Assembly: GCA_902533655.1 (NCBI GenBank)
Contig: CACAMX010000002.1
Coordinates: 1 to 58,574 of the forward strand
From: an uncultured Bacteroidota bacterium
GTDB lineage: Bacteria; Bacteroidota; Bacteroidia; Flavobacteriales; BACL11
Direction of reading: 5' to 3'
Length of the DNA stretch: 58,574 bases
Part shown: in pieces, positions 17,723 to 24,913 of the stretch
How the letters are laid out: each line of letters opens with the position of its first letter
Position numbering within the stretch: position 1 is the stretch's first letter
The notes under the pieces: model-generated
Told to the model about the DNA's origin: nothing
The model's database searches: none
Seen by the model: the letters and a program-made list of their open reading frames with translations, nothing else
Position numbers and translations under genes: made by a program

Positions 17723-17768
17723 GCTCAGTTAATACCTTTTTATATATTTACAATTAAAATTGTGTGAA

Positions 17769-18536
17769 ATGAACAATCTATTAATTTCCAACAAAGAACA
17801 TATTACAAATATTACCATTAATAGGCCTAAACAACTAAATGCCCTAAACATTTCTACAATCAAAGAGCTTGGAAAAGCCTTCAACAACCTGCAAAATGAT
17901 AAAAACACAAGAGTTATAGTTTTAACAGGGGCTGGAGAAAAATCTTTTGTAGCTGGAGCAGACATAAAAGAGTTTAGCAATTACAATAACAAACAAGGCA
18001 CAGATCTATCACGAAACGGTCATTTAAACCTATTCAACTTAATTGAAGATTTTCCAAAACCAGTAATTGCAGCTATAAATGGATATGCATTAGGCGGGGG
18101 TCTTGAGCTAGCATTATCTGCGCATATTAGAGTTGCATCGAAAAATGCTAAACTTGGACTTCCAGAAGTTTCGCTGGGCGTAATTCCCGGCTACGGAGGA
18201 ACGCAGAGATTAACAAATTTAGTTGGAAAAGGAAGAGCAATGGAATATATATTAACAGCCAAAATGATTGGGGTTGAAGACGCAAAGCATAGTGGTTTAA
18301 TAAACGAATATTGTGAGCTAGAGGAACTCTTGCCCACTTGTGAAAACATAGCTAGAAAAATTATTAAAAACTCTCCAAGAGCAACTTCCAAGGCAATAAA
18401 ATGCATAAATGCGAGTTTAAAGAATGAAAGTGGGTTTGAAACAGAAATTGAGGAGTTTGGTAAATGTTTTCAAACAGACGACTTTATAGAAGGGACGACC
18501 GCTTTTCTTGAAAAAAGAAAACCAAAATATAATTGA
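17769..18536 (+). CDS. Enoyl-CoA hydratase/crotonase
   Basis: NRPKQLNAL, FVAGADI, GYALGGGLEL, GLPEVSLGVIPGYGGTQRL; start set at ATG 17769. Confidence 0.93.
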   Translation: MNNLLISNKEHITNITINRPKQLNALNISTIKELGKAFNNLQNDKNTRVIVLTGAGEKSFVAGADIKEFSNYNNKQGTDLSRNGHLNLFNLIEDFPKPVIAAINGYALGGGLELALSAHIRVASKNAKLGLPEVSLGVIPGYGGTQRLTNLVGKGRAMEYILTAKMIGVEDAKHSGLINEYCELEELLPTCENIARKIIKNSPRATSKAIKCINASLKNESGFETEIEEFGKCFQTDDFIEGTTAFLEKRKPKYN

Positions 18537-20032
18537 TTCAATTAAAAAAATTAGTCGGTCAAACAGCCATATATGGAGTTAGTAGTGTTATAGGTAGACT
18601 ATTAAATTATTTACTTACACCTATTCTAACAAGACCTGAAATAGGAGGGTTCAATCCTGGAGAGTATGGTGTTATTACAGAAATGTATGCTTACCTTGCA
18701 TTCCTAATTGTTTTTTTAACATACGGCTTGGAAACCGCATTCTTTAGGTTTAAACAAAAAAATGAAGATAAAAAACATGTTTACAGCACAGCTTTAATCT
18801 CTTTACTACTGTCTTCAACACTATTTGTTTTTTTCGCATTCCTTTTTTCATTTGAAATTTCAAGCTTTTTAGGCTATCCAAATAATCAAGAGTACGTTAA
18901 ATGGTTTTCAATTATTGTGGGAATTGATGCGGTATGTTCTATTGTTTTTGCTAAGTTAAGATATGAGAACAAGGCTTTAAAATTTTCACTAGTTAGAGTC
19001 ATGTCTATAGCCATAAATATTCTTGCAGTATTATTTTTTCTTATTGTCTGTCCACTATTACAAAGCGAAGACACACTATATTATCTTTCAAAAAGTTTTT
19101 ACGACCCACAAGTTGGGGTTGGCTATGTCTTTATAGCAAACTTAATTGCCTCCTCAGCAACCTTATTAGTTTTACTTTCAGAAATGAAAGGTATAAAGTG
19201 GGGCCTTAATTACACTTTATGGAAAAAAATGATCAGATATTCATTACCACTTATGGTAGCGGGCCTAGCAGGAATGATAAATGAAACTGTTGACAGGGTT
19301 TTTTTAAAAAAACTATTACCATCAATAAAAGACACATCAGCAAACCCGAGCGGAGATATAATGTATGAAATAGGAATTTACGGTGCTTTCTATAAAATAT
19401 CAATATTTATGATGCTTTTTATACAAACATTCAGATATGCGGCTGAGCCATTTTATTTTAAGTATAGGAAGGAAAAAGATTCAAAAAAATTATATGCTGA
19501 TGTAATGAAATATTTTGTTATTGCCTCTTCAACTATTTTTTTAATAGTAATGATAAATTTCGATTTGTTCAAGCACTTTATTGGAACACAATTTCATGAT
19601 ATAAGAGGATTTAAGATTGTTGCTGTTCTCATGCTCGCTAATTATTTCTTTGGACTTTATTATAATTTATCTGTTTGGTATAAATTAACAGACAAAACAC
19701 GCTATGGGGCATATATATCAATTTTTGGAGCAGCTATTACTATATCTCTAAATTTCATGCTTGTGCCAGTTATTGGTATTTTTGGATCTGCCACAACTAC
19801 TTTAGTTTGTTATTTAACAATGACTATCGTTTCGTTTTATTTTTCAAGGTCTCATTACAAAATCCCATATGACTTAAGGTCAATCTCAACATACTTTATT
19901 TTAATGATTTTTATTTTTATGATTAGTCAATTTTATAACTTAGGGGAAATAATTAATTCTATCTATATCCTAATCTTTATTTTTGTAGCTTATGTGTTAG
20001 AGCTTAAAACAAAAAAAACAACAACAAAATGA
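18533..20032 (+). CDS. Oligosaccharide/lipid flippase (Wzx/MurJ-like MOP family)
   Basis: LVGQTAIYG, TYGLETAFFRF, FRYAAEPF, NLSVWYKL; about 14 TM. Confidence 0.88.
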   Translation: MIQLKKLVGQTAIYGVSSVIGRLLNYLLTPILTRPEIGGFNPGEYGVITEMYAYLAFLIVFLTYGLETAFFRFKQKNEDKKHVYSTALISLLLSSTLFVFFAFLFSFEISSFLGYPNNQEYVKWFSIIVGIDAVCSIVFAKLRYENKALKFSLVRVMSIAINILAVLFFLIVCPLLQSEDTLYYLSKSFYDPQVGVGYVFIANLIASSATLLVLLSEMKGIKWGLNYTLWKKMIRYSLPLMVAGLAGMINETVDRVFLKKLLPSIKDTSANPSGDIMYEIGIYGAFYKISIFMMLFIQTFRYAAEPFYFKYRKEKDSKKLYADVMKYFVIASSTIFLIVMINFDLFKHFIGTQFHDIRGFKIVAVLMLANYFFGLYYNLSVWYKLTDKTRYGAYISIFGAAITISLNFMLVPVIGIFGSATTTLVCYLTMTIVSFYFSRSHYKIPYDLRSISTYFILMIFIFMISQFYNLGEIINSIYILIFIFVAYVLELKTKKTTTK

Positions 20033-20382
20033 CAGATGTATTTGAAGACATAAATAAATTCGCAACGGCTTGTGATCAAGAGCCAAGCAAAGAAAATTAC
20101 GATATGTATCTTAATCTAATTCGAGAAGAAATGGATGAATTAGAAGAAGCTATTAAAGAAAACGATAGGGTAGAACAATTAGACGCATTAATTGACATCT
20201 TAGTTGTTACATTAGGCGCTATTAGAGCGGGTGATTTTAAAGGCAAAAGTGCATGGAAAGAAGTGATGAAGACAAACTTTGCTAAAATCAATCCAGAGAC
20301 AGGAAAAGTAATTAAACGTGAGGATGGAAAGGTGCTAAAGCCGAAAGGGTGGGAGGCTCCAAAACTTAAACAATTTATATAA
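20029..20382 (+). CDS. All-alpha NTP pyrophosphohydrolase, DR2231/MazG-like (putative dUTPase)
   Basis: LIREEMDEL..EQLDALID metal motif, WKEVMKTNFAK, REDGKVLKPKGWEAP. Confidence 0.88.
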   Translation: MTDVFEDINKFATACDQEPSKENYDMYLNLIREEMDELEEAIKENDRVEQLDALIDILVVTLGAIRAGDFKGKSAWKEVMKTNFAKINPETGKVIKREDGKVLKPKGWEAPKLKQFI

Positions 20383-20391
20383 AAACTTTAA

Positions 20392-21390
20392 ATGAATATT
20401 ATAATACCCATGGCCGGAAGAGGCACAAGGCTAAGACCGCATACTCTTACTACACCAAAGCCTTTAATTAAAATAGCTGGAAAAGCAATAGTTCAAAGAT
20501 TGGTTGAAGAAATATTTGCTTCTTTTGATGAAAGAATTGACAATATTGGATTTGTTGTTGGAGATTTTGGTAGAGAAGTTGAAGAGGACTTAATAAATGT
20601 TGCGAAAAATTTAGGAGCTACTGGTCAAATCTTTTATCAAGATGAGCCTTTAGGAACAGCACATGCTGTTTTCTGTGCTGAGAAAATAATGAGCGGAAGC
20701 TGTGTAATAGCTTTTGCTGACACTTTATTTAAGTCTGATTTTAATATAAACAAATCTGTAGATGGAACAATATGGGTAAAACAAATAGATGACCCCAGCT
20801 CATTTGGAGTAGTAAAGACGGATAAAAATATTGTCACAGATTTTGTTGAGAAACCGGATGTTTTTGTTTCCGACCTTGCTATTATCGGAATTTATCATGT
20901 TAAAGACTCTTCAATTTTGAAAAGAGAAATAAAGTTTTTGATTGATAACAATATTAAGGATAAAGGAGAATATCAACTTACTGATGCTTTAGAAAATATG
21001 AAAAATAAAAATTATAAGTTTGGCGCAGCAAAAGTAAGAGAATGGTTAGATTGTGGTAACAAAAACGCAACATGCTACACTAATCAAAGGTTATTACATC
21101 ATCAAAAAAACAATGTAGATCAAACCAGTCAAATTATTAATTGTGAAATTATAGAGCCATGTTATATTGGTAAAAACAACTTCATTAAAGACTGTCAAAT
21201 TGGCCCAGATGTTTCAATTGAGGATAACAATAAAATAGAGGGCTGTGAGCTGAATAATGTTATTATGCAAAGCAATAATGATATTAGAAAAATTAAACTT
21301 AAAAACTCAATGGTTGGTAGCTTTACATCAATAGATGGGAAAAGCGCGTATCATCAAGCTAGTATCGGAGACTTTACTATTATAGAATGA
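20392..21390 (+). CDS. Sugar-phosphate nucleotidyltransferase with left-handed beta-helix tail
   Basis: PMAGRGTRLRPHT..PKPL, QDEPLGTAHA, FVEKP, WLDCG. Confidence 0.92.
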   Translation: MNIIIPMAGRGTRLRPHTLTTPKPLIKIAGKAIVQRLVEEIFASFDERIDNIGFVVGDFGREVEEDLINVAKNLGATGQIFYQDEPLGTAHAVFCAEKIMSGSCVIAFADTLFKSDFNINKSVDGTIWVKQIDDPSSFGVVKTDKNIVTDFVEKPDVFVSDLAIIGIYHVKDSSILKREIKFLIDNNIKDKGEYQLTDALENMKNKNYKFGAAKVREWLDCGNKNATCYTNQRLLHHQKNNVDQTSQIINCEIIEPCYIGKNNFIKDCQIGPDVSIEDNNKIEGCELNNVIMQSNNDIRKIKLKNSMVGSFTSIDGKSAYHQASIGDFTIIE

Positions 21391-23117
21391 AAATTATAAC
21401 TTTAATATTTTTTGCATTAATTTTTTCCTCAGAACAGATATATTCCCAATGGAATAAAAAAAGAGAAAAAAACAAAACCAATTTGGCACTAAATTATGGT
21501 GAAAGAAAGAAGTTTGATCATAATTTTTTTGAAGCGTTAAAAGAGAAACATCTTGAAAACTATGATGATGCTTTGGTATTATTTGAAAAATGTATAAAAA
21601 TTGATCCAAATGCTGCAGCACCATATTACGAGGCTGCAAAAATTTACAAAAAACTAAGTCAAAATTACCAGGCGCTAGAATACTCATTAAAAGCTTATAA
21701 GTTAGATGAGGGAAACGAAACATACGCTCATTTATGTGCTCGAATGCTTAGTAAGCAAAAAAAATACTACCAAGCTAAAGACATATATAAAACCTTAATC
21801 AAAACAAACAGAAAAAGAGAAATTTATTTTTATGAATTAGCTGACGTAAACATACTATCAAGCGATTTTAAAGGAGCAATAAAAGTGTACGATGAACTCG
21901 AAAGAATAATAGGAATTAACAAAATGCTTTCTTTGCAAAAGCATAAAATATATATGCAAGTTTTAGATGTAGAAAATGGAAACAACGAGCTTTTAAAACT
22001 TGCAGAGGAGTTTCCTGAAGATGTAGATGTTTTGGAAATTTTAGCTGAAGGATATTTACTAAACAATGAAAAAGAAAAAGCATTTAAAATTTTTAAAAAA
22101 ATCTCAGATTTAGACAAAAACAATGGAAGAGTTCACCTAATGTTATATGACTATTATAAATCCAATGGAGAAAAAGAAAAAGCTTTTGAGGAGCTTGCTA
22201 AAGCCTTTGAAAGCAGTAGTTTAAGTATTGATGGGAAAATACCAATATTAGTTTCATATATAAACTTGTTAAAAGATTCAACGTATAAGACTCAAGCATT
22301 TTCTCTTTGCAGAAAAATAGTCAAAGCACATCCTTTGGACCCTAAATCATATGCTGTCTTTGGAGATTTACTATATGAGGACAGACAACTTGATTCAGCA
22401 GAGTTTTATTATAATGAAGTTTTAAAAATTGACAAATCCAAACCCCAAATTTGGACTCAACTAATTTTTGTAAATGCAGAAAAAAATGAATACGACAAGG
22501 TTTTTAAAATTACTGAAGAAGCTCTATTGTATTTTCCAACAAATGCAGTTTTTTATTACTTTAATGGAATATCACTACTTAGAAAAAAAGAATATAAAAG
22601 TTCAATCAACGTTTTTAATCAAGGTATAGAATATGTTTTTGACAATAATATTTTATTAAATGAATTTTATAATTCTTTAGCAGAGTGTTATAATGAAACC
22701 CAAGATTATATATTATCAGATTCTCTTTTTGAATTGTCACTAAAAATAAATCCTTCAAACCCAACGGTATTAAATAATTATAGTTATTATTTATCTTTAA
22801 GAGGCGTAGAATTAGAAAGAGCTAAAAAAATGTCATTGAATAGTAATTTATTAGAACCAAATAATGGAACATTTCAAGACACATATGCTTGGATACTTTA
22901 TAAATTACATCAATATGATGAGGCTTTAACTTGGATTATAAAGGCTGTAGATAATGGAAGTAGTGAAAGCCCTGTTGTTTTAGAACATTATGGAGACATA
23001 CTCTATAAATTAAACAGAAAAAACGAGGCTTACGAAAAATGGAAACTGGCTAAGGGTTTTGGAAAAGGGTCAGAACTGTTAGAAAAAAAGCTAAAGGAAA
23101 AAAAACTATATGAGTAA
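21387..23117 (+). CDS. Exported tetratricopeptide repeat protein
   Basis: Signal peptide, TPRs, VLNNYSYYL..DTYAWILY..EHYGDILY. Confidence 0.9.
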   Translation: MKIITLIFFALIFSSEQIYSQWNKKREKNKTNLALNYGERKKFDHNFFEALKEKHLENYDDALVLFEKCIKIDPNAAAPYYEAAKIYKKLSQNYQALEYSLKAYKLDEGNETYAHLCARMLSKQKKYYQAKDIYKTLIKTNRKREIYFYELADVNILSSDFKGAIKVYDELERIIGINKMLSLQKHKIYMQVLDVENGNNELLKLAEEFPEDVDVLEILAEGYLLNNEKEKAFKIFKKISDLDKNNGRVHLMLYDYYKSNGEKEKAFEELAKAFESSSLSIDGKIPILVSYINLLKDSTYKTQAFSLCRKIVKAHPLDPKSYAVFGDLLYEDRQLDSAEFYYNEVLKIDKSKPQIWTQLIFVNAEKNEYDKVFKITEEALLYFPTNAVFYYFNGISLLRKKEYKSSINVFNQGIEYVFDNNILLNEFYNSLAECYNETQDYILSDSLFELSLKINPSNPTVLNNYSYYLSLRGVELERAKKMSLNSNLLEPNNGTFQDTYAWILYKLHQYDEALTWIIKAVDNGSSESPVVLEHYGDILYKLNRKNEAYEKWKLAKGFGKGSELLEKKLKEKKLYE

Positions 23118-23685
23118 GCTGAAATATCTACTGTTATTTTTTTTTACATCTTGTAGTCTTACTTTTCTAACAAAAAAAAACATTAAAGAAAATCAAAACA
23201 CTGATTTACAAATTCAAAACGGGTTCAGTGCTGTTGGTGAGTTTACGTACAATGAGCAAAAATCACCAATCAAAGGAAAAATCAACTTAATTTTTGATTC
23301 TAAAAACAATATGTGGTTGTCGGTAAATTCATTGTTTAATTTAGAGCTCTATCGTATTTTTTTAATAGCAGACACACTTTATTTAATAAATAGAATTGAG
23401 AAAAATTACCAAAAAATAAGTTTTCAAGACTCAACTAACAATATCAATAAAAACTTACTGAAAAAAATCAGAGATTATGAAAACACTGAAGTAGTCTATA
23501 ATGGAAACGTTTTTTATTTACTCTTTAGTGAGTCTAGTGACGAAAAAACCACAAATATTCCTAAAAAAATAGTCATAAAAAAAGGAGAAGAAAAAGAGTT
23601 TTTTTTGGAAATAAAACTCAATCAAATACAAAGAACAAGACAAAAAGTGGAGATTAATATTCCAGACAACTATGAAAAAATTTAA
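23110..23685 (+). CDS. DUF4292-like lipoprotein (short, divergent)
   Basis: Lipobox FTSC, MWLSV..LELYRI..DT..INRIEKNY, C-terminal IPDNYEKI; sits between the TPR gene and envC. Confidence 0.65.
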   Translation: MSKLKYLLLFFFTSCSLTFLTKKNIKENQNTDLQIQNGFSAVGEFTYNEQKSPIKGKINLIFDSKNNMWLSVNSLFNLELYRIFLIADTLYLINRIEKNYQKISFQDSTNNINKNLLKKIRDYENTEVVYNGNVFYLLFSESSDEKTTNIPKKIVIKKGEEKEFFLEIKLNQIQRTRQKVEINIPDNYEKI

Positions 23686-24913
23686 AATTTTTCTTTTTCT
23701 ATTCATTATCACTAAAACTCTATGTGCTCAAAGTAAAAAAGATTTAAAAAACGAAAAGAAAAAAATAGAAAACGAGATAAAAATAACAAGCGGTCTTTTA
23801 GAAAAAACAAAACAAAACAAATTAAAATCATTGAATTATGTGAATGCTCTTGTCACTCAAATTGAGAAAGAGGAAAGTTTAGTCAAAATGTTAAACATCG
23901 AAATAAAATTAAAAGAGAGAAAAATAAAAAATATCAATAAAAAAATATTTGCGAGTAAAGAGATAATTTTCGATAAACAAGCAGAACTAGAAAAGCTAAA
24001 GAACAATTACTCAAAAATTATATTTTCTTACAGTAAAAACAAAGGGTTAAAAGACCTGCTGATGTTTATAATTTCTGCAGAGGATTTTAACCAGGCCTAC
24101 AAAAGACTATTATATGTAAGACAATATACGACTCAAAGAAAAAATTATTTAAATCAAATATCAAAAGAACAAAAACAATTAAGACAAGAAATTGTAAATT
24201 TAGAAAACATAAAAAAAGAGCTCGAGACAACCACCTTTCAAAAGAAAAAACTTTATGAAAAAAAACATGAAAATCTTAACGAAATATCTATCAAAAAAAA
24301 CGAAAAGCAACAATTAATAACTAATCTTGTTAAATCAGAAAAATATTTTAAGCAAAAACTTAAGGAAAAACAAAAAAAGTCTAAAGAGTTAGATGAAAAA
24401 ATAAGAAAGATTATTGAGGAGGAGATAAAAAAAGCAAGAAAACTTGCAGAAAAAACCAACAAGTTAAACTTATCACCTGAAGCGTTAGAGTTGACAAAAA
24501 AGTTTACAGGAAATAAGAGAAAGTTGCCATGGCCAGTTGATAATGGGGTTGTTATTCAAAAATTTGGAAATAAAAAACATCAAATTTTTTCGGAAGTTGA
24601 AACCTTTAATAATGGAGTTGATATTGCAACAGATAAAAACGCAATAGTAAATGCGGTTTTTGATGGTACAATTTCAAGAATATTTCTAGTTAAAGGTGAA
24701 GGAAAAGCAATATTAATTTCACATGGAGAATTTTACACTGTTTACTCAGGACTTCAAGATGTTGTGGTTGAAACAGGTGAAAAAATCTTAACTAGAGAGA
24801 AGATAGGCAAAGTGAGATATAACGAAAAAGAACAGAGATCACTATTGCATTTTGAAATTTGGAAGGGTTATGATAAGGTTGATCCAGGAGATTGGATCTA
24901 TAAACTTTATTAA
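23672..24913 (+). CDS. envC: Murein hydrolase activator EnvC family
   Basis: Long coiled coil, KLPWPV, degenerate M23 domain (NNGVDI, LHFEIW). Confidence 0.88.
   Translation: MKKFKIFLFLFIITKTLCAQSKKDLKNEKKKIENEIKITSGLLEKTKQNKLKSLNYVNALVTQIEKEESLVKMLNIEIKLKERKIKNINKKIFASKEIIFDKQAELEKLKNNYSKIIFSYSKNKGLKDLLMFIISAEDFNQAYKRLLYVRQYTTQRKNYLNQISKEQKQLRQEIVNLENIKKELETTTFQKKKLYEKKHENLNEISIKKNEKQQLITNLVKSEKYFKQKLKEKQKKSKELDEKIRKIIEEEIKKARKLAEKTNKLNLSPEALELTKKFTGNKRKLPWPVDNGVVIQKFGNKKHQIFSEVETFNNGVDIATDKNAIVNAVFDGTISRIFLVKGEGKAILISHGEFYTVYSGLQDVVVETGEKILTREKIGKVRYNEKEQRSLLHFEIWKGYDKVDPGDWIYKLY

Follow-up and report, generated by a model that had tools for sequence, protein, structure and literature searches.

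The window, the whole stretch of DNA analysed here, comprises 58,574 nucleotides of a contig from the draft genome (55% complete) of an uncultured marine bacterium of the Flavobacteriales (Bacteroidota). At 20029..20382, in the place where relatives carry the dUTPase gene dut (the dut slot), it contains a gene for a 117-aa protein, here called X. Its family, its fold and its nesting among phage sequences identify X as an all-alpha (d)NTP pyrophosphohydrolase that resembles DR2231 and descends from jumbo phages, and its dN/dS is about 0.03-0.08. All genes of the region lie on the + strand. The slot is flanked on the left by a gene for a polysaccharide flippase-like membrane protein (18533..20032; PF01943, 44 bits), preceded by an enoyl-CoA hydratase family gene (17760..18536; PF00378, 226 bits) that keeps this upstream position in relatives. 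On the right follow a sugar-phosphate nucleotidyltransferase (20392..21390; PF00483, 94 bits), which comes after dut in relatives, and then, in the conserved operon, a TPR protein (21387..23117; Pfam match), a 191-aa ORF (23110..23685) and an EnvC-like M23 peptidase protein (23672..24913; PF01551, 63 bits). The order given in the initial annotation was supported by Pfam from the flippase through X, the nucleotidyltransferase and the TPR protein to the M23 peptidase, but the name DUF4292 was not, the 191-aa ORF having no Pfam match up to E = 1.

Both junctions of X are as tight as had been claimed, with an ATGA overlap with the flippase stop codon at 20029-20032 and a 9-nt gap (20383..20391) before the nucleotidyltransferase start at 20392. 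The A-rich leader of X (20004..20028, +), which also provides the last flippase codons, resembles the leaders at two other host sites described below; the 9-nt spacer likewise resembles an AT-rich trailer at both, a likeness of low-complexity sequence that carries little weight. Comparison of the flippase 3' ends of 15 genomes showed a usual tail of ...PKLF in most relatives, instead of which the flippase in the window has a short K/T tail running into X. The GC content of X (0.35) and its GC3 (0.27) did not stand out against those of its neighbours, and a scan for promoters and terminators at the locus returned matches at chance level only. The nucleotidyltransferase of the window yielded dS values of 0.47-0.56 to three congeners, which differ mutually by 0.20-0.26; this approximate doubling was not seen in the flippase or in X, and recombination in the nucleotidyltransferase, directly behind X, is one possible cause. 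In several lineages the nucleotidyltransferase has been lost and dut is followed by the TPR gene (L055, L058, L060, L063-L065, L069, L070, L072, L081), a repeated loss which indicates that this operon junction is labile.

X matched PF01503 above the cut-off (38.7 bits) and phrog_671 (108 bits), and in the PDB it matched DR2231 and Exig_1061 by sequence. An AlphaFold2 model (pLDDT 96.5) consists of four helices plus a C-terminal extension; the top rows of a Foldseek search with this model were all DR2231 (TM 0.74-0.80), and a VIA-align comparison with DR2231 gave a Z of 11.5 and an rmsd of 2.0 A over 112 residues, with the next family at Z 9.0. DR2231 is the best match of X in both sequence and structure, the C-terminal extension included. 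For HisE (PRA-PH), the 38.7 bits to PF01503 are set against a Z of 8.9 for HisE structures, as compared with 11.5 for DR2231, and the locus is not a his operon. The reported lack of trimeric dUTPase features was borne out, in that X had no match to PF00692 and its model is made of four helices rather than being all-beta; nor was there a match to PF08761, the family of dimeric dUTPases, with E as high as 0.1 allowed.

Residues E33, E34, E37, D52, A53 and D56 were invariant in all 104 X-like rows, and N83, K86, R97, K101 and K104 were kept in 103 of them; the last four are the basic residues that bind phosphate in this family, and N83 takes the place of its Asn selective for deoxyribose. As judged from the sequence, E33, E34, E37, D52 and D56 form an acidic metal cluster on two helices, of which the first three presumably correspond to E46, E47 and E50 of DR2231; the positions of E46 and E47 come from PDB titles. 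E79 and D82 of DR2231 align with A53 and D56 of X, and the canonical ExxD is absent in the DR2231 register. Assignment to the DR2231/MazG-like all-alpha family was upheld by the fold and the PDB matches, while the 'ExxD' originally read at E49-x-x-D52 proved to be out of register. The second metal pair of X is an offset DxxxD (D52/D56), as in Exig_1061, and N83 aligns with Asn126 of that protein. Where both DR2231 and Exig_1061 carry a sugar-stacking Tyr after the second metal Asp, X has V59. X is thus like DR2231 by fold, with an active site that departs from that of DR2231 in detail, and since a metal ligand and the stacking Tyr both differ, the fold alone does not settle specificity for dUTP. 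Purifying selection on X was evident from 6 pairs (dN 0.007-0.018 versus dS 0.18-0.28), and copies 91-98% identical were found in other uncultured Flavobacteriales/Bacteroidota assemblies.

The synteny on which the initial annotation relied, with dut at this position in relatives, proved accurate. We surveyed 68 genomes of the family, of which 55 had the flippase assembled and 42 carried dut, and dut lay directly behind the flippase in 42/42; it holds the same position in other Flavobacteriales families. Five genomes (G019, G007, G022, G030, G070) give no dut status, as none of the genes flippase, atpG and envC is assembled in them. The remaining 13 flippase-bearing genomes belong to the genus of the window, g1 (six), and to genus g9 (seven). 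X filled the slot in all five g1 genomes with the slot assembled, the contig of the sixth ending inside the flippase, and dut was found in none of the six, two of which are 95% and 94% complete. A search of the window's own genome with PF00692 gave no match, and tblastn with the dUTPases of two relatives gave a best E of 0.33, in line with the claim that no dut remnant is left. The ancestral dut is thus absent and its place is taken by a non-homologous gene from a foreign source, which is the positional pattern of what Omelchenko et al. 2003 reportedly termed 'displacement in situ' of operon genes.

Among the g1 genomes tested, uracil-DNA glycosylase (UDG) was present in 3/3 and ThyA in 2/2, and dCTP deaminase was found in 0/3. 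Matches to PF08761 in three g1 genomes corresponded to a 107-aa gene of the MazG family (22.6 bits, below the cut-off as a protein); this gene is common and kept in the genus, and it could cover dUTP.

A protein search with X returned at least 7999 relatives. Among the matches listed, the closest ones outside the genus with readable context were viral contigs of IMG/VR at 82-85% identity, a jumbo-phage source that the initial annotation had missed. The phage copies have a GroES-like gene on one side and an exonuclease/clamp loader on the other, with a minimal PolIII and ThyX close by. Judged by clamp loader and PolIII, the cultured phages most closely related to these contigs are PA5oct-like and Atu_ph07-like jumbo phages, in which the genes follow the same order. 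When two 6.3-kb phage loci were compared with the window's genome by blastn, the match was confined to 20025/20026-20385, i.e. the ORF and about 3 nt on each side, and none of the phage neighbour genes had come along. No viral contig fell inside the host X clade (best 85%; one scan covered 39/64 parts), and an exact search of viral sequences for the pattern of the host leader gave 0 matches, which suggests that the immediate donor is unsampled. We also considered the lack of dut in the phages as support for the function of X and rejected it as uninformative: PF00692 and PF08761 each matched 0/10 donor-type contigs, which are partial (26-77% complete), and among five complete cultured relatives PF00692 matched none and an X-like gene was present in one.

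In the marine jumbo phages, ferredoxin and ThyX genes lie just downstream of X (L086:5160-6351), and the SD-like leaders of these phages point to a host that does not belong to the Bacteroidota. Weak matches to X in two bacterial bins were rejected as host genes and not counted, being located on phage-like contigs, L183 (G072:C66) and L184 (G020:C32), that are likely contamination; one of the pair is podovirus-like, and the other carries a DNA polymerase and, by eye, apparent 7-deazaguanine pathway genes.

Two further landings of X in hosts were identified. In G019, from another genus, a copy 80% identical to X lies between cca and miaA (L171:9327-9680). Of 21 other loci with this junction, 14 have an ORF of about 135-200 aa there (the one tested was PF07929) and 7 have nothing; the junction is empty in the two nearest relatives of G019, so that X was probably inserted into an empty junction. 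On L199, a 1.1-kb metagenome contig, an 83% copy follows a parC-like gene (L199:635-988) that is most like those of the window's family, where relatives have intergenic DNA only. The six host rows of X formed one group against 33 phage rows, with support of 99/99 for DNA, 97/95 for positions 1+2 and 92/75 for protein; P0008-P0010, P0014 and P0019 group with the host copies and are left out of the tallied landings. In a four-gene FastTree host tree, g1 and G019 were not sisters and dut-bearing genera fell between them.

The core of the A-rich leader is common to all three host sites; it was seen in 7 of the 469 leaders that precede long ORFs in the window's genome (G000), as against 0/33 phage copies, of which 30/33 have an SD-like leader. 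The leader was likely part of the transferred cassette, although the motif was chosen after the fact and resembles some relatives' flippase tails, which makes the sharing suggestive only. Divergences of X amounted to dS values of 0.71-0.82 among hosts and 0.73-1.38 from host to phage. The simplest reading of these sequences would be one capture, after which a bare cassette passed from host to host; alternatively, X may have been captured repeatedly from a phage group that is unsampled.

Across the order, 117 genomes were at least 90% complete, of which 90 had dut and 27 did not. Nine of the latter, with genomes of 0.3-0.6 Mb, belong to family f17 and have no DR2231-like gene; by derivation from these tallies, the other 18 all carry one (18/18), a pattern that rests on about 6 independent losses and has a chance probability of about 0.07. 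A native DR2231-like paralogue occurs alongside dut in 55 genomes. In family f7, 13/14 genomes lack dut and 14/14 encode a longer DR2231-like protein of about 155 aa with an insertion (L050, L052, L053), a candidate for a second stand-in dUTPase; a similar long form is present on the phage-like contig L054. In f17, dut was found in 4/13 genomes, always on the second contig (contig C2 of G174, G181, G188 and G202), perhaps a plasmid.

Taken together, the positional replacement of dut by a phage-derived gene is real and well supported, and a dUTPase function for X is predicted from its fold, its location precisely in the dut slot, the absence of dut and the order-wide pattern. This prediction is weakened by the empty slots of g9 described below, the genomes with both dut and a paralogue, the landings at non-dut sites and the active-site differences. 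We put the probability at roughly 65% that X is a domesticated phage pyrophosphatase which, in the dut slot, serves as the dUTPase of the genus. The locus would then represent in-situ non-orthologous displacement in a new form, with identity of function to dut as its inferred part.

Under this reading, a single capture from a PA5oct/Atu_ph07-like jumbo phage would have brought in the gene, which would then have gained a Bacteroidota-type A-rich leader, after which a bare cassette of about 390 bp moved among lineages of the family. In g1 the cassette would have landed on dut, removing dut and the flippase tail, and X would be expressed from the host operon. Given its likeness to solved structures, the protein is expected to work as a metal-dependent dimer, using E33/E34/E37 with D52/D56 and selecting deoxyribose through N83, and to cleave dUTP to dUMP and pyrophosphate. 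It would thereby prevent uracil from entering the DNA of a cell which retains uracil-DNA glycosylase, and supply dUMP to ThyA. A bolder version is possible, though we would not bet on it: a jumbo-phage dUTPase of unrelated fold underwent a single domestication, in the form of a promoter-less cassette of about 390 bp, which is spreading among lineages of the family and has overwritten dut in one of them, and in free-living Flavobacteriales without dut the part of the missing dUTPase is generally played by DR2231-like proteins.

According to a different account, dut was lost first and X, an enzyme of broader dNTP-cleaning or dCTP type, filled the junction later, so that its position says little about its substrate. 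The seven genomes of g9 (G024, G032, G075, G078, G076, G073 and G072; loci L173, L174 and L175-L179; 58-88% complete) bear on this directly, the flippase being followed there by the nucleotidyltransferase with no dut between them. No match to X was found in the seven, and a profile search for DR2231-like genes was also empty in 5/5; the joint chance of the genes being missed through incompleteness is about 1e-4. Loss of dut with the slot left empty indicates that dut is dispensable in this family. One of these genomes, G024, keeps UDG and ThyA, and a dCTP deaminase search in it gave no match. The grouping of g1 with g9/g2/g3 in the host tree, the two other junctions occupied by X, the differences of its active site from that of DR2231 and the frequent insertion of phage-derived genes behind native ones, as described in the available text of PMC1480536, also favour loss before filling. 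Against it, one of three known landings is exactly the dut slot among an estimated 1000 or more junctions, albeit in a case picked for that reason, and the gene that landed has the one fold known to hydrolyse dUTP. Furthermore, the flippase tail is intact in six of the seven empty-slot genomes, with a frameshift in one, and is replaced in g1, which fits one replacing event and is also compatible with loss followed by insertion. The insertion itself may have eliminated dut, or dut may already have gone a short time earlier; either order agrees with these data, but we consider it unlikely that X filled the junction as an enzyme of another specificity. Of the displacement originally proposed, the occupied slot, the absent dut and the DR2231-like fold stand; dUTP hydrolysis is a prediction, and the single clean swap is put in doubt by the seven empty slots and the two non-dut sites.

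A conflict-driven swap, in which X evades a phage inhibitor of the trimeric dUTPase or destroys nucleotides needed by phages and housekeeping is secondary, would accommodate the finding that three lineages of a single family have taken up X and has a parallel in staphylococcal phages, where pressure from parasites leads to dimeric dUTPases being swapped in for trimeric ones (available parts of PMC5608427 and PMC4619825). The very low dN, the housekeeping operon and the lack of a defence context around X make it improbable. It is still harder to see X as a native Flavobacteriales paralogue that moved into the slot without a phage. Such paralogues are common in the order, with profile matches in 93/151 genomes, but they are only 30-38% identical to X, as compared with 82-85% for contigs whose neighbouring genes are of phage type, which indicates that X is not a cellular paralogue; they fall far outside on long, well-supported branches (quick tree, 123/175 rows kept), by which this reading is largely refuted, and a profile search found none in 13 other genomes of the family. 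Finally, an assembly chimera of phage and host DNA, conceivable in a draft genome of this completeness with phage contigs contaminating the bins of two relatives, is refuted by the same junctions in four other species and one metagenome contig, and by contigs from RNA libraries of close relatives (4 runs examined) that bridge flippase-X in 2 runs and X-transferase in 2 runs, even if these contigs may stem from DNA.

The locus is of interest as a natural gene-swap experiment, and it names one candidate for the missing dUTPases that can be tested with one small protein. With a single slot that holds dut, stands empty or is filled by X within one family, it also provides a clean case for the study of operon gene replacement. 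If the function is as predicted, a core enzyme of DNA-precursor metabolism was taken from a jumbo phage of lytic type, the reverse of the direction in which auxiliary genes usually travel; the cultured relatives of the donor phages infect Proteobacteria. Bacteria without a recognised dUTPase are common and, in the available text of PMC5122711, include 27% of Bacteroidetes species; a role of MazG-like enzymes as stand-ins is so far a proposal (accessible parts of PMC5122711 and PMC12524310). The supplements of PMC5122711 list species without dut and may bear on the order-wide claim. Jumbo phages are described as carrying MazG-like triphosphatases, the donor group having a split minimal PolIII (PMC7824862, available sections), and related phage genes are mentioned without assay in the accessible portions of PMC12629253 and PMC10516641. 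The literature searched, from which most subscription papers were missing, contained no account of the locus, nor any case in which a DR2231-like gene from a phage occupies the dut slot of a host.

Among characterised proteins, DR2231 of Deinococcus radiodurans (PDB 2yeu, 5hva, 5hx1) resembles X in fold over the whole length and in the EVxxxNxxK and RxDGKxLKPxGW blocks. It differs in that the two are only 27-29% identical, that E79 is replaced by Ala with an offset Asp in X and the Tyr after the metal Asp by Val, and that X is phage-derived and sits in the dut slot; D. radiodurans was not among the control genomes matching PF00692. DR2231 is credited with 'exclusive activity on dUTP' in the title of Mota 2016, as cited in the available text of PMC10014863 and PMC7575645. 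Exig_1061 (YP_001813558.1; PDB 3nl9) shares with X the DxxxD pair, D95/D99 corresponding to D52/D56, and the Asn126 equivalent to N83, but it is a longer, segment-swapped dimer with a weak fold match (TM 0.45). The available part of PMC2954211 describes the offset DxxxD, gives Asn126 as the deoxyribose discriminator and predicts, without assay, a preference for dCTP, which counts against dUTP specificity of X. A cyanophage MazG, in turn, prefers dGTP/dCTP (PMC6850273, available text).

Among phages, the closest likeness is to the PHROG 671 nucleotide pyrophosphohydrolases of jumbo phages near Pseudomonas PA5oct (Wroclawvirus) and Agrobacterium Atu_ph07, to which the 108-bit profile match refers, and the order of PolIII-minimal, GroES-like and clamp-loader genes in the uncultured phages with 82-85% copies is that of the cultured ones. 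Unlike these, X is cellular and stands as a single ORF behind an A-rich leader; the gene is present in one of the five cultured phages. The dUTPase exchange in Staphylococcus aureus phages similarly has an all-alpha enzyme standing in for a trimeric all-beta one, gene position not being compared in the accessible text of PMC4619825 and PMC5608427. There, the exchange is from phage to phage, involves the dimeric family PF08761 and has demonstrated activity, whereas for X it runs from phage to host chromosome, with a DR2231-like enzyme and a predicted activity. The nearest precedent at the level of the operon is the replacement of a single operon gene by a foreign, non-homologous one, reported together with the insertion of phage-derived genes behind native genes, the mechanism being called unclear in the available text of PMC1480536. 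In the present case, by contrast, the donor phage group, the empty-slot controls and the alternative landing sites are all in hand.
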